In this document: in pieces, positions 24,549-64,000 of the stretch
Numbering within the stretch: the first letter of the stretch is position 1
Layout: every line of letters begins with the position of its first letter
DNA from: Nitrospinaceae bacterium
Lineage (GTDB): Bacteria > Nitrospinota > Nitrospinia > Nitrospinales > Nitrospinaceae
DNA: 64,000 nt
Direction: 5' to 3'
Assembly: GCA_965237905.1 (NCBI GenBank)
Contig: OZ250172.1
Location: 2,336,001 to 2,400,000 of the forward strand
The notes under the pieces: generated by a model
The model's input: the letters and a program-made list of their open reading frames with translations, nothing else
The model's database searches: none
Told to the model about the DNA's origin: nothing
Translations under genes and position numbers: made by a program

Positions 24549-24551
24549 AAG

Positions 24552-27988: not shown

Positions 27989-30900
27989 GTGGCCTATCCG
28001 TTCGCGCAATTTGACACCCGCACACCACCTGCCGCTGAAGGCTACGTTCCTTCTTTTTTAAGCAAACTTCCTTTTATCCGCCGTTCCTCCAAGGGGACCA
28101 CCGGCGGTTATCGCAAGCCTCCCGCCAACCAACATGTATTGGAAACTCTGGAACCGCGCGTTCTGTTGGCGGCGGATTTATCGTTCGGCGCCGCGACCGA
28201 TCTCACCCTGCAATATGATTCCCTTGCCAGCGAATACCAACTGATCGACGACCTCAGCAATGTGGTCAGTCAGATCACGGCCGGTACCGTCGATGGCGGC
28301 GATGGTGTGATTGATATCGACGGCAGTGCCGGAGACGACACGCTGGGCCTGGATTGGGCGACACTGCTGGGTGGCAAAAACATCAACTTTACGGGATTGG
28401 GCACGGATACGCTGTCGGTGTTATCGGACAGCGATATGAACCTGACGAGTACCCAGCTGACGGTGAACGGTCTGGGTTATACGGTATCGGGATTCGATGC
28501 GGCGCGTCTGACCGGTGGTGCAGGGGATAACATCCTGGATGCGTCAGGGTTCAGCGGTAATGTGAGGCTTGAGGGAGCCGGGGGCCATGACACACTGATC
28601 GGTGGTTCGGGAGATGATGTCCTCATCGGTGGCGGAGGCCACGATGTGTTGTTCGGCGGCAGTGGCACGGATTCTCTGGCAGGTGGTTTGGGCAGTGACA
28701 CGGTACGGGGTGCGGATAAGGCCAACGCCTGGCGGATCTCAGCCGGCAATCAGGGGAATGTCGATGGCGTCGCGTTCAGTGAAGTGGAGAACCTGATCGG
28801 GGGGAACTCGGCGGACATCTTCAGTTTTGACGATGGCGCGGGGATTACCGGTACGGTCACCGGCGGCGGCGGGGCCGATGAACTGGATTACGCTACGCGC
28901 ACGACCGGCGTGAACGTCAACCTGGGAACGGCTACAGCTTCGGATACCGGCGGCTTTGCGGATATTGAAAGTATTACCGGTGGACTGGGTACGGATACCC
29001 TGACGGGTGCGGATGACGCGAACATATGGAATCTCACCGGAACCCATACCGGTGTGGTCGGTGGCGTTTCTTTCAGTGGTTTGGAAAATCTGGAAGGCGG
29101 TGCGCTTGATGACACCTTCGCGTTAGCCGATGGTGCGTCGATTGGTACGGTAACCGGCGGCGGTGGCACAGACACATTAGACTACAGCACAAGAACGACG
29201 GGTGTGAACGTCAACCTGGGAACGGCTGCGGCCTCGGATACGGCTGGATTTAGTGGCATTGAGAGTGTTACCGGTGGTCTGGGTACGGATACCCTGACAG
29301 GTGCGGACAGCACGAACACGTGGATCATTGACGGATCAGGTGCCGGTAATGTGAGCGGTACGACGTTCACCGGAATGGAACACCTTGAAGGCGGTGCCCT
29401 CGATGACACCTTCCAGCTGACTCTGACCGGTGGATTGACCGGATCGATCTCGGGCGGTGCGGGCAATGACACGCTGATCGCCTCCGACAGCGACAATGTG
29501 TGGGAGATTACCGGAGCCGATCAGGGAACGCTGAACACGCTGGTGTTTGTGGATATCGAAAACCTCACCGGCGGTGCCGGAGATGACCTGTTCCGCTTCC
29601 TGAATGGCGGCAGTATCAGCGGCACCATCGACGGCGCGGGCGGCATCAATACCCTGGATTACTCGTCGCAGGTGGCGGGGGTTGCGGTCAACCTGGAAAC
29701 CGGCTCAGCCACGGGACTGAGCAACTTCACCGGTATCAACAAGGTGACGGGCAGCTCGGGTGCGGACACCCTGCGCGGTTTGGATGCCTCGAATGTATGG
29801 ACACTCTCCGGTCTCGATACGGGTTCGGTGGGCAGCACGGATTTTAGCGACATTGAGAATCTGGAAGGCGGTTCGGTTGCCGACACGTTTGTGGTGCAAG
29901 TAGGCGGCGGTTTGACCGGAACATTGTCAGGCGGTCTTGGGTTCGATGAGCTGTTTGGCGCGGACGGACTCAATACGTGGACGGTGGACGCGGGTGACAG
30001 CGGTACATTGAACGCTCTGCCGTTTTACGATATCGAAAGTCTGGTGGGGGGAACGAACGAAGACGAGTTTCTGTTCGCGGTCGCGGGCTTCATCTCGGGA
30101 CATTTTACCGGCGGTCCGGGACTGGACCGGGTACGGGGAGCCAACCAACAGAATACCTGGCGCATCAAGGGCAGTAACAGCGGCAAACTGAACGACCGCG
30201 ACTTCAGCGGGATTGAGAACATCGAGGGCGGCAGTGATGCCGACGACTTCATCCTCGAAGCGCTGGGTTCCATCAGTGGCACGCTCACCGGCGGCGCAGG
30301 ATCAGACACCCTCGACTACAGTGAAACCTCTGCCGGTGTCACCATCGATCTTTCCAATGGTACCGCAACCGGCACCGGTGGCATCAGCAGCATTGAGAAT
30401 GTGATCAGTTCCGCCGGGAACGACACGATCATCGGTGCGTTAAGCGCGGTTCTGCTCGACACGGGTGCCGGCACGGATACGCTCGACTTCTCGAACGTTC
30501 TCTCCAATTTAAATATCACGGTGCATGCCGCCGGGACGCTGAGCGTGACCGATGGCGTTGATTCGGTTAATAACATTGCCGGAGCCGAGAACATCATCGG
30601 CGGTACCGCTACCAATACCTATACCTTCGAAGATGGCGCATCGATCGCCGGTAACATCACCGGCGGCAGTAATGTTCTGAGCTACGCGGCGTACACGACG
30701 AATGTCTCCATCAATCTAAATACCAATACCGCGACGGGCACGGGTGGCGCTTCCAGCGTGGTGAACGTGATCGGTGGTGCAGGCTCCGACACGTTAACCG
30801 GTGCCGACAGTGCGAACACCTGGAACGTCACGGGAACAAACACTGGCAGTGTGGGCGGCACCAGTTTCAGTGGTGTCGAAAATCTCGCAGGCGGCACGGG

Positions 30901-33900
30901 CGCCGACAGCTTTACGTTCGCCGCCCTGAGTTCGGTGGACTCCGTAGCGGGTGGCGGTGGCAGTGACACCCTCGATCTGTCCTCCGACACGGCCGGTGTG
31001 ACGGTGGATCTGAATCTCGGCACGGCGAGTTATGCGGGTACGATCTCGGGTATCGAGGATGTTGTCACCGGTGCCGGGAACGATACGATCATCGGCGCGT
31101 TAAGCGCGGTGTTGCTCGACACGGGTGCCGGCACGGATACGCTCGACTTCTCGAATGTTGCTTCCAATTTAAATATCACGGTGCATGTTGATGGTACGAC
31201 CAGCGTGACCGATGGTGTGGATACCGTCAACAACATCGCCGGTGCCGAGAACATCATCGGCGGTACAGGCACGAACACGTATACCTTCGAAGATGGCGCA
31301 TCGATCGCCGGTAACATCACCGGCGGCAGTAACGTGCTGGATCATTCCGCGAATACCACCGGCATCAGCGTCAATCTCAATACGAATACAACAACCGGCG
31401 TAACGGGTACGGTGTCCAATATCGTCAACGTGATCGGCGGCAGTGGCAATGACACGTTGACGGGTGCCGATGCGGCGAATGCCTGGAGCATCACGGGTGT
31501 CAATACGGGTACGGTGGGCAGCACCAGTTTCTCTGGTATCGAGAATCTCGCCGGCGGCACGGGCGCCGACAGTTTCACGTTCGCCGCCCTGAGTTCGGTG
31601 GATTCCGTAGCGGGCAATGCCGGATCGGATACCCTCGATTTGTCTTCCGACACATCGGGTGTGACGGTGGATCTGAGTCTCGGCACGGCGAGTTATGCGG
31701 GTACGATCTCGGGTATCGAGGATGTTGTCACCGGTGCCGGGAACGATACGATTATCGGTGCGTTGAGCGCGGTGTTGCTCGACACGGGTGCCGGCACGGA
31801 TACGCTCGACTTCTCGAACGTTGCTTCCAATTTAAATATTACGGTGCATGCCGCCGGGACGCTGAGCGTGACCGATGGCGTCAATACGGTTAATAATATC
31901 GCCGGTGCTGAAAACATCATCGGTGGTACGGGTACCAATACCTATACCTTTGAGGATGGCGCGTCCATCACCGGTACCATTACCGGCGGCAGTAACATTC
32001 TGAACTACTCAGCCTACACGACGAATGTCTCCATCAATCTCAATGCCAATACGGCAACGGGAGTGACCGGAACGGCAGCCAATATCGTCAACGTGATCGG
32101 CGGCACGGGTAACGACACGTTGACGGGTGCCGACAGTGCGAACACCTGGAACGTTACGGGACTGAACTCCGGTAGCGTGGGCGGCACAAGTTTCAGTGGT
32201 ATCGAGAATCTCGCCGGTGGTATCGATGCCGACAGTTTCACGTTCGCCGCCCTGAGTTCGGTGGACTCCGTAGCGGGTGGCGGTGGCAGTGACACCCTCG
32301 ATCTGTCCTCCGATACAGCAGGTGTGACAGTTGATCTGAGTCTCGGCACGGCGAGTTATGCGGGTACGATCTCTGATATCGAAAATGTGGTGACCGGTGC
32401 GGGTAACGATACCATCATCGGTGCGTTGAGCGCGGTGTTGTTGGATACGGGTGCCGGCACGGATACGCTCGACTTCTCGAATGTTGCTTCCAGTTTAAAT
32501 ATCACAGTGCATGCGGATGGTACGACCAGCGTAACCGACGGCGTGGATACCGTCAACGGTATCAGTGGTGCCGAGAACATCATCGGCGGTACCGGTACCA
32601 ATACCTATACCTTCGAGAATGGGGCATCGCTTGCCGGTAACATCACCGGTGGCAGTAATGTTCTGAGCTACGCGGCGTACACGACGAGTGTTTCAGTTGA
32701 TCTGGGTAACAACACGGCGACAGGCACAACGGGTGCATCGAGCGTCGTCAACGTGATCGGCGGCACAGGTTCAGATACGCTGAGGGGTCCTGCGCCCAAT
32801 TCCACGTGGACCATAGACGGTCCCAATTCGGGAGAGGTGGCAGGAGTTACCTTCAGCGGTATTGAGAATCTGACCGGCGCGGCCGACAACGAGGATACCT
32901 TTATATTTTACAGCACCGGCAGTCTGAGCGGTTTGGCGGATGGTGCGGCCGGTGGTTTCGACAGTCTGATTCTGGCCGATGGGGTGTACGAAACAGTTGT
33001 CTATACAGCGACTGGGATCGACTCGGGCACCATCAGCCGCGACGGCGATATGATCACCTTTGTGGGTTTGGAGCCCACGACAGACAACACGGCTGGTAAC
33101 AAGATCGTAGACATTACCACGGCTCCCTTCGATCCGACGAACGGCGCCGATATAATCACCATCTCGGGCGGTACGGGCACACTGACCGTCGCGGGTGATA
33201 CCTTTGAAGACATTACTTTTGGTGGGCTCAATCCGGGCGACACAGTCACCGTTGATGCCGAAGGTGGGAACGATAGCATTACCATCCAGTCGTTGGGCGA
33301 CTTCGATGGCAATTTGCGCGTTCGAGGCGGTTCCGGCAACGATCAGATTACTATTGAAAATCTTGGAAGTTACAGCCGTACCCTTACTATCCAAGGGAAC
33401 ACTGGGGACGATACCATTACCCTCGATGCCATCACTGCTTCCGCCACCTATGATCTGCGCGGCGGTTTAGAAATCACCGGTGACACGGTGGAAGCTATGG
33501 TATCAGGTGATACTGATTTTACCTTATCGGACACTCAGCTGAAGGTGGGTACCAAGAATATTTCCTTGTTCTTTATTGAGAAAGCCAATCTGACTGGCGG
33601 GGGTGGCAATACCGAATTTGACATTCTGAACACATGGACGGGCGATGCCACACTTACAGGTGGCGGTGGCGACGACAATCTGGATCTGACAGGTCTTGCG
33701 AATCCGTTGGATCTCACCATGTCCGGCAACACCATCACCAATAATAACCCTACTCCTAGTATCACGATTGACCAGCCGGGCGGCATTACCGAAGAAATCG
33801 ACTTTGATCTTTTTAATGACCCCGGTGATTTGGCTCCGGGTACTGTGAGTGCCGGCGAACTGCGTGACGCTTTCACCAAGGGGCTGGACGATCTGGTGGA

Positions 33901-36900
33901 TTTCGCCGATAAGCTGGTGGATACCGCCAGCGGCATCCAGGAGTTGCTGAACACTCTGCCTTTCCTGGGAACGCAGGTGGCTGAAGTTACCGAAAACATC
34001 GGACTCAACGATATCTTTAACTTGGGCGACACAGGCGGATTTTTCGATGATCTGAGGGACATCATCAACGGAACCGATGTTTTGGGTTCACTGCCAGCTT
34101 CTCCAAAACTTTCCGATGTGATCAATGCCATCAACTCCGCGGGCACGCCGGGTATCATCGATAACATTAGCGCGTCTTTCCACGACACTGCGTACCGTCC
34201 CAAGGGCAATATGGACGGACAAGCGCTTGAGGTGCTGATCGATCTTAGGATAATGGGAAGCGTGATGGACACCTTTGACTTGGATCTGGGTGAAATCGCC
34301 AACTTCCAGGGTCTTGACCTGGGTACGATTACCGTCGATGCCACGGTGATGGTGGATGCAGACATCACCATTGGTTTGACCACCGGGCCCAGCCCGGAGT
34401 TATTCCTCCTGCCTAACGGCACCCTGACCTTTACGCTGGATGTCGATGCAGACTTGACCGGATTGGATATCAATCTCGGGATTCTCGAGATGGTAGGAGC
34501 CGGCATGCTCGATTATCAGGGTGTGCTGGAGTTGACTCTGAAGGATCCGGGCAACACCGCCTTGGACGACCGGATTGATATCAATGAAATCACCAGCGCG
34601 AATGCCGGTCAGCTGGTTGACGTTAACCCCACCACAGATACTTATAACGCCAGCGCCGCGGTCAACCTCAATGCGGGTATTTCGACCGCCGCCGGTGCGA
34701 TCACCGCGTTTGCCGATTCCCCAGCGGACCTGGGAAATAAAACCAGGGTGACCTCCAACGCGCATGGGTTGTCCAATGGCGATCAGATTTTGATCGAAGG
34801 CACCACCAGTTACAACGATACGTATACGGTTCCCAGTGTTACGGCGGATACGTTTGACATTACCGAGGCGTTTGTTGCCGATGACGCCACCGGTACCTGG
34901 TCGAAAGATCTTTCGTTAGCGAGCGCCACGCTGAATGTCAGCGGTTCTATTTTTGGAAATCTTTCCAGCCCGGCCGCGGCCCCCACGGTGGATTTGGACT
35001 TGGGCGCCATCAATTTATTTGAAGGTTTCAACAACATGAGCCCGCTGGAATTGCTCGGCCTGTTGAGTGATGCGGCCAATACCTTTGCCACCATTACCGG
35101 CACCGATCTCCTGGACCAGGAGATTCCGTTTACCGGCAGGACCATTGGCGATGTGCTGAACTTTGCCGAGACCTTTAGAACGGAAGTGCTGAATCCGCTG
35201 TTCAAGAGCGGCGATGCCGCCAATCCCGATTTCAACGGCGATAACGCGATCGATGCCGACGATCTGAACTTCACCGGTATACAGGGTCTGGTGGATACCC
35301 TGGGAGACAAACTGGGTCTGCCCCCGATCAGCGCCATTTTTGACGACACCACCAAGGAACTGAAATTCACGATAGATTTCGCCCGCGCCTTCGGCATCGG
35401 GAATGGACAGGTCACCACCATTGCGGATGGTGACGGGATTACCGGCGAGCACCAGCAATTGGAAATTGACCGCAACACAGTGGCCAATTTCCGCCTGGCC
35501 TTCATCAGCAGTTCCGGTGATCTCATTCTCACCGACCCGATTGATACCAGTCTCGCGGACACGGATGCCGCCGTAGCTTCGAAGATCCAATCCAAGCTGA
35601 TAGCATTGACCGAGATCACTGGCGTCACGGTAACGCCTGAGGCCAGTGGGGTGACCACGGCGGCGTTTGCCGATTCTGGTGTGAGTCCTGGGCAGAAAAC
35701 CAGAGTGACTGACACCGCCCATGGGTTGGCCAACGGGGATGTGGTTTTTATCGGCGGCACCGACAACTATGACGGCCAATATGAAATTTCGAATGTCACC
35801 CCGGACACTTTCGACATTACCAAGGCCTTCTCCGAAGACGATCCCAGCGGTCACTGGGGTAAAGGGATTTATAACATTGTCTTCGACGATCCGCTGAGTG
35901 ATTTTCCGCACATGTCGTTTGTGGAAGGCTTGTCCATCAATTTCGGGGAAAGCCTGGGCGACTTTGCGAGTATCGAAACTTCCGGGTCGTTCCATCTGGC
36001 GGCGGGTCTGGATACCGGATTGACCTTTGGCGTGGACCTGAGTCCCAACACCCAGATCGCCGTGGTGCCGCCGGCGTTTACTCCGGACAAAGTGGGCCGG
36101 GTGGATGTGACGACCCTCTTAGATGGCGGCCAATTTTTAGATCCGGAAACTACTGATGAAGAAGTGAGTGTGGTTGTCAATGCGATTGAGGGGACCTTTA
36201 AGCTGGCGTTCCGCAACACCCCGGGATCAGGCGACTTCCTGTTGTCCGATGCCATTGATTTCGATTCTGACGCGGCAGATTTCGAGACAGCTCTGATTAA
36301 CGGTTGGGGAGTTGCGGACAGCGCTATCGATGTTACAAAAGACGGATCGAACCCCGTTTACACGATCTCCTTTAAGGGCACTTTGGCCGATCTGGATGTT
36401 GAGGTTGTTTCAGATGACGGAATTCTAAGCACCGATGCCACCTTCGATTTAAAGGTCTTCAATCTGGGTGCGCCGATTCTGGATAGTGCGGGCAAACTGC
36501 AGTTTTTGCCCAATGGTGAAGTGATGCGTGAGCCCAATGCACTGTTTGCAATGACCACGCCCATCACCGTGCTGAAAGCGAAAACTCTGGACAATGCTTC
36601 GTTGCAGGATCTGGCTGAGGACGTGCAGGCGGCGGTCGATGATGCCGTTAATGCCACGGGCCAGACTTTGGGTATCAATCCGTTGTCCTGGACGGCTGTC
36701 AACAATACTGAAACGGCTGCGCACAATACGATTCTGGAGCCCGAAAACGATTTCCGAATCCTTATCGAACTTAAGGATACAGGGGATTCGGATAATGATT
36801 TTGATGTTCAAGGCATCCTGAGGCAAACTTCGGTTATCTCATCAGACCCATTGGAGCTCCTGTTTGAACAGATGACGCCCTCGATCGGCAATGTGGTGGG

Positions 36901-39900
36901 TGAATTGCAGGAGGTGATCACTGCGGCCCTGGACGGAACCGGAATCGGTATCACGGTCGGTCAGAACGGCGCGGGTGATAAATTGACCTTTACTCCTAGC
37001 GGTGTTGGAGCGGGACAAACGCTGACCCTCAGCACGCGGTCTCTGGTGTTGGCTTCGGCAGGCGGCGGACGTATTTCGTTGTCGGCGGAATCGGTCGGTG
37101 CGATCACGGATAGCGAAGGTGACATCACCGCCTTTGCGGATTCCGGAACCGACCCCGGGGTTAAAACCACGGTGACCTCCCCGGGTCATGGGTTGAACGA
37201 CGGGGAAACGGTTTTTATCACCGGCGTCCTGGCGGGTTCCGTGGCGGCCTTTGCTGATTCCATAGCAGACCCGGGAAATAAAACCACAGTGACCACGGGA
37301 GCCGCTCACAACTTGGCTGCCGACGATGTGGTCCGGCTTGCGGGTACGGGTACGGACAAATTTGACGGCGATTTTCTCGTTACCGTTATTGACGCCACTA
37401 ATTTTGACATTGAAAAGGCGTTTGTATCCGGCGCCACACTCGGAACCTGGTCGATCGTCAACAAGGAATTCACCATTTCCAATGTCACCGCCAACACGTA
37501 TGACATTGCACTCGCTTTCGTGGCCGGTGCGTCGACCGGAACGTGGGTGACGGATCCGAACTTCCCGCTGGTGTCGTCGACCCTGGTGGACCGGTTCGTT
37601 CAGATCAATATTCCCGGGGCGACCGGTAATACCGCTTACACCGAATTGGGCCTCGCCAGCTCGCCGACTCGCTTTGACGGCATCATTACCAACGACATCG
37701 AGATCACTCTCCAGATCAATGAGGTGGCTGTGGATGTCACCGTTCTGGCGGGTAATACGGACGGGGCAATCGGCACGGCCAATACCACGATTCAAGACCT
37801 GGTGGATGACATCCAATTGGCTGTGACAACAGCTCTTAATGCCAACTCAGTCGCTTTGACCGCCGCGGGTATTACTGGGATTGTGGGTGACACGATTGAA
37901 GTCAAGCTGGCCGATCCCAACGGCAACCGCATTCAGTTTTTGGCGGCAGATGGCAAGGGAGTCAGCAAGCTTGCTTATAAAATTGATCCATCCAACCCGA
38001 GCAATGGCGCTTTAACAGAGCTTGGTTTTGATCTGGACCAACTCGATACAATAACCGGTCAGAGTGAAGTCAAGAAAGCCAAGGCGGATACGTTCTTCCT
38101 GGAAGACGTTTCGTTCAGCGGCGAGTTCGGTGTGTTCGCCAACAACATTTCAGCCACCGCCAGTGTCGGCTTCCTGGGTGTGACCGCTACGCTCGATCCG
38201 ACCCTCAATGCAACCGATGAATTCATTGGTGCGGATGTGGATTTTGCTCTGCGCAATCCGCTGGACGGGACTTCCCGCATCGGGGTGAAGCTGATCGCCA
38301 ACGCAATCGAGGATGGCAAGCTCTTTTTTGACGCCGCGGAAGGCTTCGGCGGTACTAATGCAGACCCGCAGACTGGATTTGTCGACGGCACGATCGATGG
38401 CGGCATCGGATTGAGCCTCGATATCAAACCGGATGGTTTGTTGAGCGGCCTGCCGGCCAGCATTTCCGCGTCGCTGGATCTCATAGCGGAAAGTCCGAAC
38501 TGGCTCATCTCACCTCCTCTGTTAAGTGATCCGCTGGGTTTCGAGGAAGTACTCAATACTGGAATGGCCCAGGCGGGAATCGCCAATGCCATTACACTGG
38601 CGGCTTCGTCGACGACCCAGGACGACTTCTTCAACGGCTCGAAAATACGCATTACCGGCGGTACCGGCAAGGTTGGCGAAACTCGAAGGATCACGGACTA
38701 TGACGGCACCTCCAAGGTAGCCACGGTCGACGCCAACTGGACCACCAACCCGGATGGTACTACCACCTATGAAATTTTGCTCAGTCCGATCCGGTTCACC
38801 GGTACCAATACGGAAACACTGGCCACGGCCTTGTCGAGTGGTGTCTTGACGGAGAACGTCAGTATCGTTGTTTCCAATAATAATGACGGAGTGAATGCCG
38901 ATCCGGACGAGGCGGTGGGTCTGCTGAAGGCCGGAGATTACGGAAACGCGGCGGGATTACAGGCGGTTTTGCAGGGTGTGGTGGATGATGCTCGTGCCCG
39001 GCTGGCCGACAAGGTAGGCGGCCCGGTTGGAGCCATCACGGTAGGTCTTACCGGCTCCAATCTGACGGTCACCGGCGACAGCGGCATGAGCCTGCGCGCC
39101 AACCGGATTGTATTGGACTTCATGGGACCGGATTTCGATGACATCCTTTCCCAGTTCCGTGATTTCAGTTTTGATGACATCATCGCCGCTCTACAATTCA
39201 TAGTCGACTTCCTGGACGGGATCCAAGAGGCCGGTTTGGCCGAAGACGTGTTCGATTTCCAGATTCCGTTGATCAACCAGAGCGTGGGCGATCTTATTGA
39301 TCTCGGCGGCGAGTTCCTCGACTTTGTCGAAGAAATATCGAGCAATCCCTCCGGTTCCCTGCAGATACTTGAGAATGTATTGCGTGACACATTGAACCTG
39401 CCACAGTTGGCCGATCCGCTGGGAATGGGGCTGGCACTGGGGACCAGTGTTTCGCAAAGCCTGGATACGTTGTTCACGTTTGGTACGGAAACTGCCGCGC
39501 AATTGGCCCAGGATATGTCCTTCCGTCTATCCAACGGGGTTGATGAAGTGCTGGTCGAGTTGCGCGCCGCAGAAACCCAGCTCAACGCCGATCTGGCCGC
39601 TCTGGTCAGTCAAATTCAGGGTAAGGTGGATGCCGCCTTGGCCGAACTGGGAGTGGGCGGGTCGCTGACGGTGACCGAGTCCAGTGGGATGATTTCTCTT
39701 GATCCCAGCGGGCTCACTGGTGTGAACCTGAGTCCGTTCAGCCTGTTCTCACTGGATCTTCCGAACGGTCTGCTGAATCTCGATTACAATTTCTCCGCCT
39801 CGGCGGAAGAGAACCGTTCGTTCAATCTGGATCTGGCCGATGCCGGCCTGCCTTCGGAATTCACCAATCTGCTCGGGGTGAGCTCTTCGGGTCTCCTCGC

Positions 39901-52069: not shown

Positions 52070-55000
52070 TGAAGAACTGGGCACCAAGGACGTATTGGTC
52101 ACGCGGGGCGGCAATGTTTACCGCATTACTTTTACGGATGAAATGGGCAACCAGGATGTCGCACTGCTCGACATCGACGATTTTGCGGATCCCAACGACC
52201 TGGCTCATCTTGGCCTCACCATGGAGAGCGGGGCCGTAGGCGATGTGTTGAATATCAACAACAGCGCAGACGACACGGACACGGTTGCGATCCTGACCGA
52301 TACCTCGTTGACCGGGCTTGGCATGGGCGATATCGGTATTGAGGAAACCACCTTCAACGAGATTCAGACGCTTCGCCTCGATGCCACCGGCGGCACTTTC
52401 CGCTTGAGCTACACCAATGAGGATCTCGATACGTTCGAGACTGCCAATCTGAACTTCGATATTTCTGCGGCGGCTTTGCAGGCGGAACTGGAAACGGTGC
52501 TGGCGACTGCCTTGAGCCTCACACCCGAAGAGCCCATTGATAACATCCGTGTCGTCCAGAATGACGATGTCTACGTGTTCTACTTCCGTGGACTGTTGTC
52601 CAACGCGGATGTCGCTCCCATTGAGGTTGTTGAATTGGCCAATAACCTGACGCGTATCGAGGAGCTTCCGGGAGGAGACTTAACAACAGTAGTGCCTGGC
52701 GACCTTTTCACCACCACCCGCCTCGATGGTATTACAGCGGCCGCTCAAAACGAAATCCAGCAGTTACTCATAACGGCAACGGGCGGCACCTTTACGCTCG
52801 CCTTCCCGGATAATACGGATCCGGACGACATTACTGTGGAATTGCCTTTCGACGTAACTCGCGCGCAACTCCAGCTCGCACTCGAGGCGCTACCGGCCAT
52901 TGTTCCGGGTGATGTCATCATCAGCGAAATTACGGGTGGATTCAATATCGAGTTTGTCAGCGAGCTGTCCTCGCAAAACGTGCCGGAAATGATCGTCGAC
53001 AACCTTACCGATGGCACGGTGACGGTTAACGAGATACAAGCGGGGCTCGACACCGGGCTGAATAACGTCCAGGTAGTGACCGTCAACGCCTCGCAAGGTT
53101 TCTTCCAACTTCAGTTGTATGTCCCGTTGGTTCAGAAGACCCTGCTTACCGAACAGTTGGCTCATGATGCGAGTGCTGAGCAGGTGCGGAGAGCCCTGCA
53201 ACAGGAGTTGGCACGGGAACTCAACGGTATCGCGGAGGGTGCTGACCTGAGCCGCACCCGTGAAGCCTTCAAGTCTGATTTCTCCGTTGCACGGATCGAC
53301 AACGTCTACATCATCGGCTTCCAGGGCGTGACCCGTCAGATCGACGGTGGAGAGGGCGTCAGTCTCTTGAACGTGATCGGTGATGATGAGTTCAACGACA
53401 GCGGCTCTGCCGAGGTGCGCACGCGAATGGACGGCATCAACTACTACGGCATCGAGCAAATCAATCTCAATATGGGTAGTGGTACCGACATTCTGAACGT
53501 ACAGGGCACCAGCCCGGGCAGTTTCAAGCTGGATCGCGATAATACCGTACACGCCGCAACCAATATCACCCTCGCCGTCGGTAACGACCAGATCTTTATC
53601 TCCTCGAATGCCGATCTCGATCACGCCAACATAAACGATGGCGACGTGTTTGAATTCCTGACCGGGCATCTGGACGATGTGTTGGGCAACTTGAATCTCG
53701 ATGTCGGTACCGGGACTCACCGTTTGCTGATCAGTGATGAAGCGGCCACCGTGGGTGACGCCAACATCACGATTTCAGACATCATCACGACGCCAACGGG
53801 TGGGGATACATTTGATGATACTTCGGCCGCCGAGATCCAGGTCAAGGGACTTGCCTATGGCGATATCACCTACGGAGCGGACGCCAGTGCCAATTTTTAC
53901 GATGGCATCATTTACTGGACGGGTTCCGGAGACGATACCATTTTCATCGACGGTACTCATGTGCGGGATGAAGCGGTAGAACGCACCACCACACTGCTCA
54001 ATACCGGACTGGGTGATGACCATGTCACGGTCGACCTCGATGTCCTCGATGAATTCGATGAGCCCGAAGACGGCTTCTTTGTACTGCATACCATGGGCGC
54101 CAAGGTAGCACACACGCCTGTGGATCCAACTCTCAGTGACGGGATTGACGATCCCAGCGACGATGACACAGTCCGGGCATCTGAATCCACGTTGCCGCTG
54201 ATCATTTTCGGCGGCCTCGGCAATGATGACATCATCGCCGGTCAGAACGAGGACATCGTTTTTGGTGACTTTGGCCGCGTGCAGTACCTCAATAGCATCG
54301 GCGAACTGATCGCGGTATTCGGCTTCGGCGCCCGCGATGACGTGATTAGCAGTCAGGTGATCGATCCGACCTGGGTCATTTCTCGCGACTTGAACCTCGG
54401 TGGTGTGGATATTATCGAAGGCGGCGAGGACGACGACATCCTCATCGGCGGCGCCGGGGGGAACAGCATCGGCGACTATATCGACGGCGATGAAGGCGAT
54501 GACCTGATCTTTGGTGATGCCGTTCGACTGGAACGCAGGGACACGGATGTCACGGTGGTTGGCGGAGAACCCGGCAGTATCACTAATCCACGCTTCCAGA
54601 CACTGGAAGGGCAGGTGATTTACACCCGTAACGATATTCCCGCATTCCTGCAGGGACTCACCCCGGCAGAGTTTGGTGAACTGAACGGCAGTAACGTCGG
54701 CGAGGTGTTGGTCGATGGCGTATCACGTGATATTCGCCACCAGGACGGCACACTGGTAGCCGCTTGGAACGAATACGAGATCGTTGAACTGTACCACAGC
54801 TTTGACATCGAGGCGGGGATGGTACCCGGGCTTGAGGACAGCTTCGGCGACGATTACATCGCGGGTGGCGCAGACCACGACGTGATCTTCGGTCAGCTCG
54901 GCGACGATGTGATTCAGGGTGACGGTAGTATTGAGAGCGCGGTAGGTGCGGAGACCCTCGCAGATAACCGGGTTGCCGCGGCACAGGCCGGACTCAATCC

Positions 55001-58000
55001 AGTAGGCGCACGGCGTGTTGATGCCGGCACGAGCATTCTGCCGCCGGAGCTTGTCGGTTTGGTTAACCAAATCCTCGATATAACCGCCTCCTTCGAGACG
55101 GCAGAAGACGGCGACGACTACATCGAAGGTAACGGCGGAAACGATACGGTCTTCGGTAACCTTGGGCAGGACGACATCATCGGCGGCAGTTCCAGTCTGT
55201 TCACTTTGAATGACAGTTCACTCAGGCCCGATGGCGACGGAGCGGATTTCCTCTTCGGCGGGTCGGGCGAGCGCATCGATCGTAATCACGATATCACCGA
55301 TACGAACAAAGACACAATCGTTCTGGATGATGTGCATGCTCGTGATTCGGATGTCATCGCCGGCGACAACGCCAATATTTACAGGATTGTGGGCACTGGC
55401 GACATCACACCGCCCGGTGAAGCTACAATTCCAGGCACGGGAGATACCGGCGGGTTCCTCGATTTTAATTATGATGCGGTGCGCGAAGCGCAACGGATCA
55501 TCGTTCGCGCGGTGGAACTGCTCGACTACACCCTCGGCGGACCGGATTTCGATATGGCGAGTGCGGCCACAGATATTGGCGCGGGCGATGAGATCCATGG
55601 TGGATCCGGCGACGACTTCATCTACGGCATGGTCGGCTCGGATGTCCTGTTCGGTGACAGCGAAGATGACGACATCATTGGTGGCTGGGGCTTAGAATGG
55701 ATTTCCGGCGGCACGGGTGACGATGGCGTGTTGGGCGATGGCGGCCGGATTTATACGAGCAGAAACAGTACTATTTTCGGGGAGTCGCTTTTCGGGATTG
55801 CTGCCTTGAGTGCCGTGGATGTTGAGATCGACACGCCGGGCAATATTCAGGAGGCGATCATCAATGTGAATGGCCAACTTAAAAAGACGGTCGACCTCAC
55901 GCCATTTAACGTTGACCCGAGTAGTTTGCAGGATGCCTTGTTCAATCCGATGTATGCCGACGATATCATTTATGGCGGTCTGGGTGGTGACTTCCTGCAC
56001 GGTGGTGCGGGAGACGACGCGATTTCCGGTGCCGAGGCGCTTCCCATTTCTGCGGCAGTAGTGTACCCGGACAACGACATGACCGATAATGCACGCACCG
56101 ACGGCGTGGTGATCACCCTCGGTTATGACACTCCATTCAATTCCGGAAATATTCTGGGCGCCGATGCGCTCAGGGCGGAAGAGTTTGCCGCTTACGATGA
56201 ATTCAATCCACGGACTAAGATTCTGGTAAATGTGGATGGCGATCTTCTGGATTACTTCCTCAACTTTGATGAAACCGAGGGTCCGGTAGCTCCAGGCAGC
56301 CCGAGCAAGTTTACGGATGGCGATGACCGGATCTTTGGCGATCTCGGCAACGACTGGCTGGTGGGCGGTACGGGTCGAGACACATCGTACGGTGGGCGTG
56401 GCAACGATCTGATGAACGCCGATGACGACCACAATACCGCCAGTGGGTTGAATGATGTTCCCGATGGCCCTGAGTACAGTTACGAAGATCGGGCTTTTGG
56501 TGGCGCTGGCCGGGATGTGCTCATCGCCAATACCGGTGGCGATCGCCTGATCGACTGGGTTGGGGAATTCAACAGTTTCCTCGTACCCTTTGCACCTTTT
56601 GGCCCGCCGACCGTTAGTAGAGCTCCGCAGCCACAAATGGCGGAATTTCTGTATGATCTTTCCGAGAGCGACGGCGCGGATCCAACACGCGCGGCGGATA
56701 CCGGTAATGCGGTTAATCGCAACGGCGAGCCGGACGGGGAACTGGGTGTGGTCCTGCAAAAAGATGATGACTGGGGTGATCAGACCGGTGGGCCGGCTGA
56801 TCCGCAAGCAGGCAATATTCCGGGCGGCAAGCGGGATATTCGGGGAGGTGCCGATTTTAATTCGGGTACTGCGAGCAGCTTTTTCGCTGATAGTGGCACT
56901 TGGACGGTGAGTGGCGGGCGTTTTGAAGTAGCGCCTGAAATCCTGGGAGCGGATGCGGTCAGCGTTTATATGGTCAACGAGTATCTGCCCAACTATTTTG
57001 AGCTCAAGGCCACCATCAATGCCGGCAAACCCACAGCCGGATTGAAATCGAATGCGTATCTGATTTTTGATTACCAGAGCGAGACCGATTTCAAATACGC
57101 CGGGGTCAATATTTCCAACGACAAAATGGAAATGGGATACCGTGATGCCACCGGTTGGCACGAGTTGGTGCAAACCTCTGCGAAGCTCAGACCGAACACG
57201 GATTATGAACTGCTTCTGGCTCTGAATGGTACCGCTGTCACACTGGTGGTGGATAACCAGGATGTCTTCAATTACGTTTATGCACCTCGCGTCGATGCGG
57301 ACGGGTTCAGCTATGGATTGAACGCCGGCATGGTGGGTATCGGTGCTCTCAATTCAGTGGCGCGTATTGATAATGTCAAGGTGCAGGTCCTGCCGCCGGA
57401 GATCACGTTTGAGGACACTGATGATTTTACCACTGCGGCGACGCTGCTCACCGGGGCGACTACGGGTGATTGGCAGGTCGTTAATAATCGTTATCAGGTG
57501 GATGCGACATCTATCGAGTTAGCCCAAAGCCTGGCCGGGTTGACGGTGGACGGGTCGAGTTTGATCCGGCTGGAAGGTGTGTTGAACACCGATGGTATTG
57601 CGGGATATGTGTTCGACCGTTACAGCGCCACCGATTTTAAATTTGCTGCGATTTCGGCAACGGATGATCAGGCTATCATCGGTCACTATGCGAGACAGGG
57701 ATGGGTCATCGATACGGCCGCCAACTGGGTGATCAACGACAATCAGGATTACGACGTTGATGTGACCGTCAAAGGTTCCACGGTGAGTGTCCTGGTGAAC
57801 GGCCAAACCGTGGTCAGTCATGCCTTCAACGCAGTTGCAGTGGACGGCGAGTTTGGCCTTTTGGCCAAAGACGGAATAGCAAGTTTCGATACGGTGACTT
57901 TCGGTACCGACGATCCGGCATTTGGCGGAGTAGGAGAAGCAGCTCTACTGGCGGCGCAGTCGGCGGGTGAGTCGGTGGCGACGTCGACCTTGACGCACGG

Positions 58001-58763
58001 TCAGCTGGAGAAGATATTCGACGCGGCGGTTACCCGGTGGACCGGAGTTGGGTATATCGATCAGGCCCGGTTGGCGACTTTGGATGATCTGGAATTCTAC
58101 ATTGCCGATATGGTCGGATTGGCCCTGGGCCGATCTTCCGGCAACCGGATCTTTATCGATCCCAACGCGGCGGGTCACGGCTGGTTTGTCGATGAGACAC
58201 CGGATGCCAATGAGGAGTTCCTATTAAGCAGTAACGGTTGGGTGGCGAAGCCCAATAGCGCGGCTTATGGCAAGATGGACCTGCTGACAGCGGTCAGCCA
58301 TGAGATAGGCCATTATCTGGGACTGGATCACGACGATGCCACTTCTGATACCTCGGTGATGAGCGATACCCTGCAGTCGGGTTCCCGGTATGTGGGAGAA
58401 GAGTCCAGCTACCGGCATATGGGAGAAGATACCCTTCTGAGCAGTGCATTCTTTGCGGCAGGTTCAGCCTTCCTGGAAGAGACGTTGGGCTTGACGGGCG
58501 AGTCGGAGGACGAGGAGGATGGCTCAGAGGAGACTCTGGCGCTGGTCTTTGACGAGGAATCCGGTGAGTTCAGCGAATCCGAAGCCACCAGTGATGATGA
58601 TGAATGGTACATCGATAATGGCGATGTGGAGCCGGATGAGGATGTATACGCCCTATTGGATCTGGAGGATGAGGATTTCACCCAGCTGGCCGGCTTGAGC
58701 CTGAATGACACTAACGGCCAGAGTGATTCCAGAATCAATTGGAATGGTCAATTTACGGGATAA
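51981..58763 (+). CDS. Giant protein, C-terminal portion (RTX repeats, two ConA/LamG-like domains, metzincin-like domain, acidic tail); true coding probably begins about 52044 as a continuation of the upstream ORF
   Basis: It carries the same repeat types as the upstream ORF, and the first ~20 residues of the called ORF are out of character. HEIGHYLGLDH at 58299-58331 is followed by SVM (Met-turn-like). Confidence 0.9.
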   Translation: MRPRRRVSKTPYSSSSIWLLGLMAVDDPDDEELGTKDVLVTRGGNVYRITFTDEMGNQDVALLDIDDFADPNDLAHLGLTMESGAVGDVLNINNSADDTDTVAILTDTSLTGLGMGDIGIEETTFNEIQTLRLDATGGTFRLSYTNEDLDTFETANLNFDISAAALQAELETVLATALSLTPEEPIDNIRVVQNDDVYVFYFRGLLSNADVAPIEVVELANNLTRIEELPGGDLTTVVPGDLFTTTRLDGITAAAQNEIQQLLITATGGTFTLAFPDNTDPDDITVELPFDVTRAQLQLALEALPAIVPGDVIISEITGGFNIEFVSELSSQNVPEMIVDNLTDGTVTVNEIQAGLDTGLNNVQVVTVNASQGFFQLQLYVPLVQKTLLTEQLAHDASAEQVRRALQQELARELNGIAEGADLSRTREAFKSDFSVARIDNVYIIGFQGVTRQIDGGEGVSLLNVIGDDEFNDSGSAEVRTRMDGINYYGIEQINLNMGSGTDILNVQGTSPGSFKLDRDNTVHAATNITLAVGNDQIFISSNADLDHANINDGDVFEFLTGHLDDVLGNLNLDVGTGTHRLLISDEAATVGDANITISDIITTPTGGDTFDDTSAAEIQVKGLAYGDITYGADASANFYDGIIYWTGSGDDTIFIDGTHVRDEAVERTTTLLNTGLGDDHVTVDLDVLDEFDEPEDGFFVLHTMGAKVAHTPVDPTLSDGIDDPSDDDTVRASESTLPLIIFGGLGNDDIIAGQNEDIVFGDFGRVQYLNSIGELIAVFGFGARDDVISSQVIDPTWVISRDLNLGGVDIIEGGEDDDILIGGAGGNSIGDYIDGDEGDDLIFGDAVRLERRDTDVTVVGGEPGSITNPRFQTLEGQVIYTRNDIPAFLQGLTPAEFGELNGSNVGEVLVDGVSRDIRHQDGTLVAAWNEYEIVELYHSFDIEAGMVPGLEDSFGDDYIAGGADHDVIFGQLGDDVIQGDGSIESAVGAETLADNRVAAAQAGLNPVGARRVDAGTSILPPELVGLVNQILDITASFETAEDGDDYIEGNGGNDTVFGNLGQDDIIGGSSSLFTLNDSSLRPDGDGADFLFGGSGERIDRNHDITDTNKDTIVLDDVHARDSDVIAGDNANIYRIVGTGDITPPGEATIPGTGDTGGFLDFNYDAVREAQRIIVRAVELLDYTLGGPDFDMASAATDIGAGDEIHGGSGDDFIYGMVGSDVLFGDSEDDDIIGGWGLEWISGGTGDDGVLGDGGRIYTSRNSTIFGESLFGIAALSAVDVEIDTPGNIQEAIINVNGQLKKTVDLTPFNVDPSSLQDALFNPMYADDIIYGGLGGDFLHGGAGDDAISGAEALPISAAVVYPDNDMTDNARTDGVVITLGYDTPFNSGNILGADALRAEEFAAYDEFNPRTKILVNVDGDLLDYFLNFDETEGPVAPGSPSKFTDGDDRIFGDLGNDWLVGGTGRDTSYGGRGNDLMNADDDHNTASGLNDVPDGPEYSYEDRAFGGAGRDVLIANTGGDRLIDWVGEFNSFLVPFAPFGPPTVSRAPQPQMAEFLYDLSESDGADPTRAADTGNAVNRNGEPDGELGVVLQKDDDWGDQTGGPADPQAGNIPGGKRDIRGGADFNSGTASSFFADSGTWTVSGGRFEVAPEILGADAVSVYMVNEYLPNYFELKATINAGKPTAGLKSNAYLIFDYQSETDFKYAGVNISNDKMEMGYRDATGWHELVQTSAKLRPNTDYELLLALNGTAVTLVVDNQDVFNYVYAPRVDADGFSYGLNAGMVGIGALNSVARIDNVKVQVLPPEITFEDTDDFTTAATLLTGATTGDWQVVNNRYQVDATSIELAQSLAGLTVDGSSLIRLEGVLNTDGIAGYVFDRYSATDFKFAAISATDDQAIIGHYARQGWVIDTAANWVINDNQDYDVDVTVKGSTVSVLVNGQTVVSHAFNAVAVDGEFGLLAKDGIASFDTVTFGTDDPAFGGVGEAALLAAQSAGESVATSTLTHGQLEKIFDAAVTRWTGVGYIDQARLATLDDLEFYIADMVGLALGRSSGNRIFIDPNAAGHGWFVDETPDANEEFLLSSNGWVAKPNSAAYGKMDLLTAVSHEIGHYLGLDHDDATSDTSVMSDTLQSGSRYVGEESSYRHMGEDTLLSSAFFAAGSAFLEETLGLTGESEDEEDGSEETLALVFDEESGEFSESEATSDDDEWYIDNGDVEPDEDVYALLDLEDEDFTQLAGLSLNDTNGQSDSRINWNGQFTG

Positions 58764-58933: not shown

Positions 58934-59117
58934 GTGTATCAATTCAATCCGTTATAAATAGAAAGCTTATCTTTAAGTTTTGGTTACCCCTTTTGGGGCG
59001 TGACGTGTGTTTGGGAGAGTTCCTTGTAGAGTTTAACGAGGTTCACCTTTAGCTTTTTTGAGCAGCTGAAGTTCCTATTATTTTTTAAGTATTATTAAAT
59101 TTTTTGGGAGAAAACTT

Positions 59118-59477
59118 ATGGCAGAGCAAAAAGCTCAGGCAGTAGCCGAGCAAAAAGAAAAGAGTGAATCGGGGAAAGCAAATACCACGTCGAACGAATT
59201 TTTAAATTCGCTGACACTTAAGTGGGATGATTCGAAGATGCAGACCACTTACGCTAACGTGGTGAATGCGTCGAGCACCCGGGAAGAGGTTTCAATTTTC
59301 TTCGGAACCAACCAATCCTGGAACATCTCTGAAGATCGCGAATTGGCCATTCAGTTGAGCGACCGTATGGTGCTCAACCCTTATGCCGCGAAACGTCTGC
59401 TGGTGTTGTTATCCCGGATTGTCAAAGAATATGAAAACCGTTTTGGGACTTTAAAATTGGACGGGGACACCAAGTAA
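59118..59477 (+). CDS. DUF3467-domain protein
   Basis: WDDSKMQTTYANVVNASSTREEVSIFFGTNQSW...MVLNPYAAKRL...YENRFG pattern, with a GGGAG RBS. Confidence 0.85.
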   Translation: MAEQKAQAVAEQKEKSESGKANTTSNEFLNSLTLKWDDSKMQTTYANVVNASSTREEVSIFFGTNQSWNISEDRELAIQLSDRMVLNPYAAKRLLVLLSRIVKEYENRFGTLKLDGDTK

Positions 59478-59529
59478 ATTGAACCGTCGAAACCATCTTT
59501 TAAAAAAAAGGTGGGACATCGATTTCGTC

Positions 59530-59558
59530 ATCCCCGCCCTTGGGCGGGGATTTTTTTT
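59530..59558 (+). terminator. Rho-independent terminator
   Basis: ATCCCCGCC-CTTG-GGCGGGGAT stem-loop followed by a T run. Confidence 0.85.
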
Positions 59559-59596
59559 ATAAAGAGGATATTTGATCAGTCCATAAGGTTTACGTT

Positions 59597-61477
59597 ATGA
59601 AGTCAAAATTTACATCGGGAGAAAAACCCGAAAAGAGCAACGGCCTAAATGATTCCCAGTTATGGAAGGAATTTTCCAACGCCAAAACTTCCAGCGAGTT
59701 TGCCCATCATTGGTTGAGTCTGCAATGCCGTTACCTTCCCGGAGTGCTTCGTGGAGTCGTTGTGCTGGGAGATCCCAAGACTGATTCTTATGCGCCTGCC
59801 GCTTTTTGGCCACAGAACTCCAATGGAAATCTAAATTTAACCCGTGTTGCTGATTTTGCGATTGAGCAAAAAAAAGGTGTGCTGCATGAAGGGGGTTCCA
59901 AGAATGGGAAAAATAATCGAAAAGGGGAAAAGAATTCATTTATGGCCTATCCCTTTTTAATCGACGAAAGCTTGTACGGAGTGGTTGCGGTAGAGGCCCA
60001 TACCTCCGATGAGAAGGAAACTCAACAAGCCATGCGGCAGTTGCAGTGGGGGACTTCCTGGATGGAAGTGATGATTCGCAGGCAGTTTAACCAAAACACG
60101 TTGCCTGACCGAAAACGCCTGAGCACGGTTCTCGAATTAATCGCCAGCGGCTTGGAAAATGAACAATTTAAAAAAGCTGCCAACGCAGTGGTCACTGATA
60201 TGGCTGTTCAACTGGATTGCGAGCGCGTCAGCCTGGGGTTTGTCAAAGGGAAATTCGTAAAGGTTGCCGCGTTATCCCACAGCGCCAAATTCAGCAAAAA
60301 GTCGAACTTGATTCGGGATATAGGCCATGTCATGGATGAGGCGATCGATCAAAAGTCCATGATTATTTTTCCTCCCATGGATGAGCAGACTCCATTAATC
60401 CATCGGTTGCATGCCGACTTAAACGACAAAAATGGGGGCGGAGGGGTTTGTACGGTACCGTTGAGTTCGGGAGATAAAGTGTTTGGCGCGTTGACTTTTG
60501 AAAAAACCAAAAAAAAGCAATTTAGCGAACAGGATGTGCATCTCTGTGAAACCGCCGCCCACATGGTGGGTCCCATTTTACATATTAAGCGCAAAGAGGA
60601 TCGATGGATATTGACCAAGGTGTTAATCTCCCTAAAGAATTTTTTAGGAAAACTGGTGGGACCCCGGCATTTGGGTTGTAAGATGGGATTCATCATTTTG
60701 ACGGCCCTGGTAGTTTTCTTTTATTATGCGATGTGGGATTTTCGAATTGCGGCAGACACCAAAATTGAAGGGGCCGTCCAGCGAGTCGTGGTGGCCCCGG
60801 TGGAAGGATATATCCAGAATACGTTTGTGAGACCGGGGGACGTTGTAAAAAAAGGTGACTTGATTTGTGAACTTGAGGATAAAGACCTGATTGTGGAAAG
60901 AGTTAAATGGGAAAGCCAGATCAATCAGTATCAAGGACAGTACCGGGATGCGTTGGCTAAATACAACCGAAGTGAAATAAAAATTTTGAAGGCTCAATTG
61001 AAACAGGCGGAAGCCAAACTGGAATTAATCCAGAAGCAATTGAACCGAACCCACATTTACTCCCCCTTCGACGGGATTATCGTTTCGGGAGATTTGAGCC
61101 AATCCCTGGGTGCGCCGGTGGAACGGGGCGAAGTGTTATATCAATTGGCCCCGCTGGATGAGTACCGGGTAGTTCTGGAAGTGGATGAAAAGGATATTGC
61201 GGAAATCCAAACCATGATGCGCGGAGAGTTGGTATTGACGGGGGCGGTCAAGGAAAACCTCCCCTTTATAGTGAAAAAAATCACCCCGGTCTCGGAAAAC
61301 CGGGAGGGAAGCAATTTCTTCAGAGTGGAAGCCCAGTTACTGGAACATCGAGATTATCTGCGGCCAGGCATGGAGGGAGTAGGTAAAATCAATGTCGGTG
61401 AGCGTAAATTAATCTGGATTTTAACCCGTGAAATGATTAACTGGTTCCGATTAAAAATCTGGACTTGGTGGCCTTAA
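59597..61477 (+). CDS. GAF-domain / HlyD-family membrane-fusion (periplasmic adaptor) protein
   Basis: GAF-like segments (LDCERVSLGF..VAALSHSA..AIDQ), one TM helix, lipoyl-like halves (VVAPVEGYI..VRPGDVVKKGD; IYSPFDGIIVSGD) around a coiled coil, and LRPGMEG. Confidence 0.88.
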   Translation: MKSKFTSGEKPEKSNGLNDSQLWKEFSNAKTSSEFAHHWLSLQCRYLPGVLRGVVVLGDPKTDSYAPAAFWPQNSNGNLNLTRVADFAIEQKKGVLHEGGSKNGKNNRKGEKNSFMAYPFLIDESLYGVVAVEAHTSDEKETQQAMRQLQWGTSWMEVMIRRQFNQNTLPDRKRLSTVLELIASGLENEQFKKAANAVVTDMAVQLDCERVSLGFVKGKFVKVAALSHSAKFSKKSNLIRDIGHVMDEAIDQKSMIIFPPMDEQTPLIHRLHADLNDKNGGGGVCTVPLSSGDKVFGALTFEKTKKKQFSEQDVHLCETAAHMVGPILHIKRKEDRWILTKVLISLKNFLGKLVGPRHLGCKMGFIILTALVVFFYYAMWDFRIAADTKIEGAVQRVVVAPVEGYIQNTFVRPGDVVKKGDLICELEDKDLIVERVKWESQINQYQGQYRDALAKYNRSEIKILKAQLKQAEAKLELIQKQLNRTHIYSPFDGIIVSGDLSQSLGAPVERGEVLYQLAPLDEYRVVLEVDEKDIAEIQTMMRGELVLTGAVKENLPFIVKKITPVSENREGSNFFRVEAQLLEHRDYLRPGMEGVGKINVGERKLIWILTREMINWFRLKIWTWWP

Positions 61478-61492
61478 TCGAAAGGGTGATTT

Positions 61493-63643: not shown

Positions 63644-64000
63644 ATGTTTATCGCTGAGTGGGAGCGTCCCAGAACCAATTTGGAGCTTTACCCGGAAAAA
63701 AAGTGGGAAGAGCCTAATTTGCTGGAACGAATTTTTTTAAAGGGTAGCCGGTATTTCCGGAAAGGGCCTTCCCTCTCACAGATGTATGAGTTTGCCCACA
63801 GGGTGGAGAGGGCGGGGAAGGAATTCCAACACATTTCTGAAAAGCAGATTGCTCTATGTTCAAAAAAAATACGGACTGACCTTCATAAAAATGGATTCAA
63901 ACCACAGTCCGTAGTCCAAAGTTTTGCTCTGATTCGCGAAGTTTCCCGTCGAACTCTTGGAATCCAGCATTACCCTGTACAGATCATTGGCGGCTACGTC
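63644..64000 (+). CDS. secA: Accessory SecA-like (SecA_DEAD) protein, 3'-truncated by the window edge; absent from the ORF track
   Basis: The ATG immediately follows the upstream TAA. My translation ends SFALIREVSRRTLGIQHYPVQIIGGYV, matching the SecA AFAxxREAxxRxLGxxxxDVQxxGG segment. Confidence 0.85.
   Translation, partial: MFIAEWERPRTNLELYPEKKWEEPNLLERIFLKGSRYFRKGPSLSQMYEFAHRVERAGKEFQHISEKQIALCSKKIRTDLHKNGFKPQSVVQSFALIREVSRRTLGIQHYPVQIIGGYV

Follow-up and report, generated by a model that had tools for sequence, protein, structure and literature searches.

The 64,000-nucleotide (nt) stretch analysed here (the window; contig OZ250172.1, positions 2,336,001 to 2,400,000, of the Nitrospinaceae bacterium assembly GCA_965237905.1) contains a giant gene whose product begins with a LEPR-XLL leader, followed by genes for a DUF3467 protein, two domain-fused periplasmic adaptors and a shortened SecA. 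Sizes below are in amino acids (aa), and ORF denotes an open reading frame. The features, all within the window and on the forward strand except the last, which lies outside it, are as follows.

27,989..52,069 (+), giant LEPR-XLL protein, 5′ ORF, 8,026 aa, GTG start
28,139..28,198 (+), LEPR-XLL leader motif, residues 51-70
51,981..58,763 (+), giant protein, 3′ ORF, 2,260 aa, +1 frame relative to the 5′ ORF
52,020..52,069 (+), +1 frameshift joining the two giant ORFs, near 52,040
58,299..58,331 (+), zinc motif HExxHxxGxxH of metzincin type, close to the C-terminus (sub-threshold Peptidase_M10 match, E 9e-5)
59,118..59,477 (+), DUF3467 protein, 119 aa, profile match
59,530..59,561 (+), hairpin and T-run resembling a terminator, separating DUF3467 from the machine operon, consensus match only
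59,597..61,477 (+), GAF domains, one transmembrane helix and a periplasmic adaptor, 626 aa
61,493..63,643 (+), RRE/PqqD, site-2 protease M50 and periplasmic adaptor, 716 aa
63,644..64,000 (+), wingless SecA, 663 aa, continuing 1,635 nt beyond the window
G000:C1:2,401,640-2,402,467, outside the window and 4 nt after SecA, third periplasmic adaptor, 275 aa, with signal peptide

The initial annotation described a single RTX-like protein of about 10,000 aa; its RTX character and size stand, as the span amounts to ~10,257 codons, but the single ORF does not, since two overlapping ORFs are joined by a +1 frameshift. The frameshift is likely to lie at or near a T4G4 run (52,036-52,043), its exact position being unproven. 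In two other genomes (G024 and G025) the orthologue is uninterrupted, a single frame of ~6,050 aa whose alignment runs in order through both ORFs across the junction, and we therefore regard the two ORFs as one gene with a strain-level break; two separate genes are ruled out by the same continuity. Contigs of two sequencing runs, which represent one sample and possibly the source of the assembly itself, cross the junction with 0 differences at a depth of 160-169. A long-read homopolymer error is thus unsupported as the cause, as contigs match all three breaks found in the two giants of this genome, with the same caveat that the sample may be the assembly's own.

The giant protein is acidic, cysteine-free and without a transmembrane segment, and contains 46 RTX-type GGxGxD repeats, 38 in the 5′ ORF and 8 in the 3′ ORF. 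The 3′ ORF gives weak laminin-G-like and matrixin matches and ends in an acidic tail with an IxW motif. The metzincin region matches karilysin and MMP13 structures weakly (E 0.04-0.06), its motif occurs in 10 of the 37 giant ORFs listed, and the product would lack it unless the frameshift is read through. The middle region gave no Pfam match in 3,600 aa, and a 700-aa piece gave no usable Atlas match. The GC content of the giant gene (27,989-58,763) is 54-59%, compared with 43-51% in the flanks, and its third-position GC is 0.64 as against 0.50 in the machine genes downstream, a contrast that hints at different histories or expression.

The N-terminal leader had been recognized in the initial annotation from the string LEPRVLL, which occupies residues 54-60 of the ORF starting at 27,989 (28,148-28,168); the assignment is borne out by the family profile NF012209, which matches at 26 bits, above its curated cut-off of 17. 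No Sec-type hydrophobic core precedes the motif, the maximum hydropathy being 1.74, compared with 2.79 in the signal peptide of the third adaptor.

Profile matches recovered the DUF3467, GAF-adaptor, M50-adaptor and SecA-like genes in the order and at the places given in the initial annotation, with amendments to the last three components. Both HlyD-type adaptors are present and a third of 275 aa lies just past the window; the SecA-like gene encodes a 663-aa protein without SecA_SW and SEC-C; and the PqqD part of the proposed PqqD-M50-HlyD protein falls below Pfam detection in this protein, although predicted structure supports it and PF05402 is present on 22 of the 120 homologues listed. The four machine genes, from the GAF-adaptor to the third adaptor, are tightly packed, with gaps of 15, 0 and 4 nt. 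The hairpin upstream of them comes from a scan that found 3 where 1.2 were expected.

The 716-aa fusion comprises an RRE, a recognition element for peptides made by ribosomes and modified after translation (RiPPs), at residues ~10-105, followed by the M50 domain and an adaptor at ~446-705. Its predicted structure (mean confidence, pLDDT, 85.7) contains three parts that match leader-bound RREs, RseP/SpoIVFB and MexA/MacA, respectively. In this model, residues 10-105 resemble TbiB1 (5v1u; Z 9.3, root-mean-square deviation 2.8, 83 residues aligned) and 6jx3 (Z 9.2); the predicted RRE fold of three strands and three helices thus matches solved RREs at Z 8.9-9.3, a score near the generic-match level. 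Modelled residues 143-325 resemble RseP (Z 9.7) and SpoIVFB (Z 9.6). The zinc ligands and catalytic glutamate (H211, E212, H215 and D313) are invariant in 111 sequences, and the HExxH and NxxPxxxxDG motifs of a site-2 protease lie within a membrane helix bundle.

The wingless SecA keeps both nucleotide-binding domains, the preprotein-binding domain and the first (long) scaffold helix, and is without the wing/scaffold (SecA_SW), SEC-C, the two-helix finger and the zinc finger; a canonical 855-aa SecA is encoded elsewhere in the genome. Its shortness is a family property: the length after Walker A has a median of 532 residues in 60 complete homologues, compared with 751 in the canonical protein, while DEAD is kept in 58 of the 60 and motif VI in 56. 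The SecA clamp has been proposed to move polypeptide by itself (PMC9926265), and the wingless SecA retains this clamp, the part where SecA structures place the motor.

The DUF3467 protein is likely to be a cargo chaperone or adaptor. Its structure was uninformative: the model reached pLDDT 54 and a best Z of 3.0, and an Atlas search gave only DUF3467 clusters. DUF3467 also occurs in a second setting: other families within the phylum (L035-L038, L040 and L042) have a shorter version between genes that, by eye, resemble haem-biosynthesis genes, with no export module.

The genome is a single 3.09-Mb contig, 96% complete, and encodes a second LEPR-XLL giant far from the machine (G000:C1 959,919-1,002,476; ~14,185 codons), which two frameshifts split into ORFs of 1,479, 1,673 and 11,040 aa, both breaks being matched by contigs. 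The two giants share the leader, with 95% identity over the first 1,470 residues, and a near-identical C-terminus. Upstream of the second giant lies its own DUF3467 gene, whose product is 79% identical to the window's copy, with no machine genes there. At the DNA level, the giants are 92% identical over 4.9 kb at the N-terminal end and 97% over 0.8 kb at the C-terminal end, which suggests recombination between them; an integrase-like ORF, judged by eye, lies ~7 kb from the second giant region (G000:C1:959,919-1,003,325). A perfect TTGACA hexamer (chance 0.10-0.15 each) occurs upstream of both giants and both DUF3467 genes (window 27,901 and 58,904), possibly reflecting shared regulation.

The initial annotation had noted that no ATP-binding cassette (ABC) transporter ATPase lies in the window, and this extends further: no ABC gene is found in the window or, on inspection by eye, among the ORFs of the 40 kb that follow, and a whole-genome exporter search placed none there. 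Downstream, which the initial annotation had suggested inspecting for a TolC, further adaptors or an ABC gene, the locus holds the third adaptor and neither of the others. All six ABC exporters of the genome score far below the cut-offs for type I transporters of the HlyB, PrtD and LssB kinds (265-431 bits, compared with 726 for HlyB), none adjoins an adaptor, and no type I HlyD adaptor (TIGR01843) was detected in the genome; the three machine adaptors score 25-48 bits against a TIGR01843 cut-off of 209. One MsbA-like exporter ORF (491 aa, G000:C1:2,760,058-2,761,533) appears C-terminally shortened. Three TolC-family genes are present, none in the locus; a 581-aa TolC ranks first by a profile of 9 module-linked TolCs (E 2e-71, compared with 3e-23). 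Two other outer-membrane routes were rejected for the giant, as each has a context of its own in this genome: TpsB is paired with a 531-aa partner, and the secretin belongs to a PilMNOPQ-like operon. No secY-like ORF was recognized among the neighbours of the machine.

Comparative profiles connect the leader with the machine. Among 161 Planctomycetota-centred genomes, the M50 fusion is present in 46 and LEPR-XLL in 20, all 20 of which lie within the 46; the profiling of LEPR-XLL against module genes that the initial annotation proposed thus came out positive, although Fisher's P of 3e-13 overstates the co-occurrence, as kin are not independent. Clear wingless SecA was found in 21 of these genomes, including 17 of the 20 LEPR-positive ones and an 18th by direct view, with a profile that included sequences from the same 161 genomes. 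DUF3467 is present in 39, 34 of which are among the 46 with the fusion and 17 among the 20 with LEPR-XLL. A type I adaptor exceeded the cut-off in 1 of the 161, and 19 of the 20 LEPR-positive genomes are without one (10 candidates scored per genome). Several genomes combine 5-14 mostly unlinked leader proteins with one machine. A Planc_extracel profile was uninformative (3/161).

In 120 genomes of the bacterium's own phylum, the M50 fusion occurs in 8, wingless SecA in 7 (all within the 8) and LEPR-XLL in 5; type I adaptors occur in 6, none of which overlaps the module genomes. The LEPR genome that has no machine (G026) carries a 262-aa leader stub running directly into the remnant of the last adaptor, which indicates that cargo and machine were deleted together. 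Four machine genomes gave no NF012209 match: G030 breaks at the giant, and two of its contigs end in giant C-termini; G028 is in fragments; in G041 a leader protein is encoded immediately upstream of SecA; and G004 has a distant form of the machine. Metagenomes contributed 539 loci, and in the best 80, for which gene order was counted, the succession GAF-adaptor, M50, SecA hardly varies: SecA is present in 63 of the 65 loci with room downstream and the GAF-adaptor in all 66 with room upstream. ABC genes appear as a single unrelated pair, with an ATPase of a small type, in 1 of the 80, whereas 18 of the 31 loci that span at least 12 kb encode a leader or RTX protein.

The leader is also more general among likely cargoes than RTX repeats or a motif at the C-terminus. 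Of the Planctomycetota LEPR proteins examined, 15 of 19 carry no more than one RTX repeat. A C-terminal [IV][DNES]W motif, in a held-out test of 20 regions (2 without a usable ORF and 3 with open-ended proteins), was present in 2 of 16 complete LEPR proteins, compared with a background of 25/358; IxW was accordingly rejected as a general signal. Because most leader proteins are without RTX repeats or the C-terminal motif, comparison, with the 20/20 profile, supports the N-terminal leader as the feature common to likely cargoes, as would be expected of a targeting signal, the role that the initial annotation proposed for it.

The module itself has been described computationally (ref. PMC4452313): Kamneva, Poudel and Ward proposed in 2015 that SecA supplies ATP hydrolysis and that M50 is the inner-membrane pore, so that a mechanism, of which the initial annotation knew none, had been suggested in print. 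As presented in the accessible parts of that paper, the locus has a wingless SecA, M50-HlyD, GAF-HlyD and HlyD in one operon, an optional TolC and no ABC gene. Here, likewise, a SecA_DEAD protein without SecA_SW accompanies the canonical SecA, and M50-HlyD, GAF-HlyD and HlyD genes are adjacent without an ABC gene. By its sequence, the locus is thus a new member of that module and would constitute a distinct variant of tripartite export. The same parts of the paper name no cargo, leader, RRE or DUF3467 and report no experiments; the neighbourhood table there lists M50, adaptor, GAF, SapC and hypothetical clusters and no giant cargo. Gene order, co-deletion and genome profiles tie a cargo class and its signal to the module here. 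The species listed in that paper include Methylobacterium extorquens AM1 and Ruegeria pomeroyi DSS-3 as carriers of the module. Chlorobium chlorochromatii is represented in the published trees for SapC, secondary SecA and the two adaptor families (PMC4452313), and a 2026 preprint reports that its LEPRxLL giants (Cag_663, Cag_665) are made, leave the cell and are transferred to the partner cell (10.64898/2026.03.19.712371). These proteins resemble the giants here in leader family and size; the difference is that the authors, in the text available, report no known transport signals and propose SapC/TolC/HlyD. The main text of that preprint does not mention M50 and notes one recently acquired secA, Cag_1676, without a role, which we infer to be the wingless one. 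Wingless SecA domains have also been found fused inside other giants, according to the available part of another preprint (10.1101/2023.11.21.568195). Our literature search, mainly of openly accessible papers, found no paper joining the leader, cargo or RRE to the module. Relative to the initial annotation, the frameshift, the intact protease active site beside a predicted leader-binding RRE and the second cargo gene are additions.

Collectively, these observations suggest that the frameshifted giant gene and a five-gene module form a system that exports proteins with the leader through both membranes independently of any ABC transporter, a reading to which we assign a probability of roughly 0.55. 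In such a system, DUF3467 would chaperone nascent cargo, as its copy beside each giant suggests, and the cytoplasmic RRE of the M50 fusion, given its predicted fold, would bind the ExLEPRxLL leader. The wingless SecA, whose motor motifs are intact, would feed the unfolded chain by its ATP-driven clamp into a putative passage to which the M50 fusion and the GAF-adaptor contribute their membrane parts, and the site-2 protease, whose active site is complete, would cut the leader as its presumed substrate. The three different adaptors may then form a periplasmic tunnel to a TolC-family channel encoded elsewhere, probably the 581-aa protein, and the cargo, judging by its composition, would fold in the presence of calcium once outside, to act as an adhesin or a surface coat. 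Both giants of the genome would share a single machine. The parts of this reading differ in strength: a dedicated, ABC-independent exporter of leader proteins is well favoured, recognition of the leader by the modelled RRE is probable, removal of the leader by the protease is slightly favoured, and export in one step without SecYEG is an even bet.

Established systems supply partial parallels. Type I secretion is defined by HlyB-HlyD-TolC, RTX proteins, LapA-type giant adhesins and an uncleaved C-terminal signal that directly follows the RTX repeats. The present system shares with it periplasmic adaptors and an acidic, cysteine-free, calcium-binding giant cargo, with a TolC exit as a likely further parallel. 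It differs in that an ABC transporter is missing, the adaptors are of three distinct kinds, the motor is of the SecA type, an intramembrane protease is present and a conserved N-terminal tag probably takes the place of the C-terminal signal. Gram-positive bacteria use SecA2/SecY2, with a second SecA, for giant repeat proteins with unusual leaders. Here, by contrast, there is no SecY2, the wingless SecA scores 415-541 bits against SecA2 family cut-offs of 725-1100, the wing and two-helix finger are lost and the adaptors are those of a diderm. The best NCBIfam match of the fusion is the daptide RRE-protease NF041824 (E 9e-42), and both daptide MpaP (10.1101/2023.03.08.531785) and epipeptide EpeP (PMC10885120) are described, in the portions available, as M50 proteases with an RRE that remove a leader. 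Leader removal by an RRE-site-2 protease thus has a precedent in daptide biosynthesis, and the daptide leader motif ELExMEAP, of the ExxE type, resembles ExLEPR (10.1101/2023.03.08.531785). As far as those sources go, the fusion differs in that its protease is joined to an adaptor and its likely substrates are of 650-14,000 aa rather than short peptides; it also reaches 143.5 of the 300 bits set for the daptide family, and no search was made for short precursor ORFs.

Several observations weigh against export by the module as proposed. We infer export, leader binding, cleavage and the channel from sequence and predicted structure, no M50-family protein was found that has been shown to be a polypeptide channel, and EpeP is, in the available text, only 'thought' to export its peptide (PMC10885120). 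In this strain, frameshifts interrupt both giant genes, and the system may therefore be idle. A TolC gene is found in only 5 of the 80 loci from metagenomes and in 4 of the 16 close-class ones from Planctomycetota; the best candidate in this genome lies in a MacAB-like operon, and its ranking is partly circular, as the profile set was seeded from this genome's own proteins. Among the 46 genomes with the fusion, 26 have no LEPR match; distant-class RRE-M50-adaptor loci of Planctomycetota (L167-L170) have no adjacent SecA (0/4) and mostly no leader matches; and 10 of 120 genomes, as well as 3 of 14 controls, have DUF3467 but no module. Related genomes are, moreover, not independent. Finally, an [IV][DNES]W motif follows the acidic tail in 20 of 31 machine-adjacent giants, compared with a background of 24/549, although it was picked after viewing the giants; that of the window's giant lies at 58,734-58,742, and a C-terminal determinant may therefore act in the machine-adjacent subfamily.

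A two-step route, which we consider unlikely, would have the wingless SecA drive leader cargo through SecYEG, with the M50 fusion acting only as a leader peptidase and the adaptors, with TolC or by way of vesicles, moving cargo from the periplasm. The retained preprotein-binding domain and long scaffold helix both contact SecY, translocation persisted when the two-helix finger was fixed by cross-linking (PMC9926265), and TolC is rarely in the locus. The Chlorobium giants were also detected in the periplasmic fraction of consortia, as reported in the accessible preprint text (10.64898/2026.03.19.712371), which fits this route and speaks against direct export. However, the leader has no hydrophobic core and the SecY-inserting finger is absent, and two of the three adaptors are inner-membrane-anchored and fused to cytoplasmic domains, an arrangement that suits a continuous conduit.

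A conventional type I route, in which an HlyB-like or MacB-like ABC transporter encoded elsewhere would export the giant C-terminus first and the module would only regulate or trim it, is improbable. The 46 RTX-type repeats, the C-terminal motif conserved in adjacent giants and a TolC-MacA-MacB-like operon in the genome fit this route, and SapC/TolC/HlyD export of the Chlorobium giants, C-terminus first, is what the 2026 preprint proposes in its available text (10.64898/2026.03.19.712371). Against it stand the lack of any type I ABC transporter or adaptor in this near-complete genome, the same lack of the adaptor in nearly all LEPR-positive genomes, a final RTX repeat 754 residues from the C-terminus and the many LEPR proteins with neither RTX repeats nor the motif. 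A signalling or peptide-maturation device (a GAF sensor with regulated intramembrane proteolysis, or RiPP-like leader processing) that does not translocate the giant is equally improbable, since the GAF domains, the intact site-2 protease, the RiPP peptidase as nearest curated family and the distant fusion class without SecA, all in its favour, leave three periplasmic adaptors, a polypeptide motor ATPase and an occasional TolC unneeded and the giants with no other evident export route.

Direct export by the module bears on how bacterial proteins of 10,000-36,000 residues without a known signal leave the cell. We propose tentatively, at somewhat short of even odds, that it represents a separate secretion class, in which a RiPP-style leader reader with a site-2 protease, a stripped SecA clamp motor and three adaptors would export cargo N-terminus first, possibly co-translationally, without ABC or SecYEG. 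LEPR-XLL would then be its signal sequence, and the class would be the missing route for some of the largest bacterial proteins, up to tens of thousands of residues, including the giants of the Chlorochromatium symbiosis. New here are a genome free of type I secretion in which one machine accompanies two cargoes with the same leader, the co-deletion, the 20/20 profile, the failure of the C-terminal alternative and a connection to giants whose export has been shown by experiment. If the leader-RRE-SecA model is true, it would define a new signal sequence and exporter, with SecA acting away from SecY, and a short portable tag for secreting very large proteins. The frameshifted strain offers a natural test, as truncation spares an N-terminal signal and removes a C-terminal one.

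Upstream of the giant, window positions 1,495-18,256 encode an exosortase EpsH with a DUF3485 partner, a TPR protein, a family-2 glycosyltransferase, a HEAT-repeat protein and a GH94-like enzyme, likely an exopolysaccharide cluster. Between this region and the giant (19,825-25,983) lie genes for a redoxin and three CsgG-like proteins; two of the three carry TPR repeats, and a TPR/beta-propeller protein of 1,220 aa is among them.

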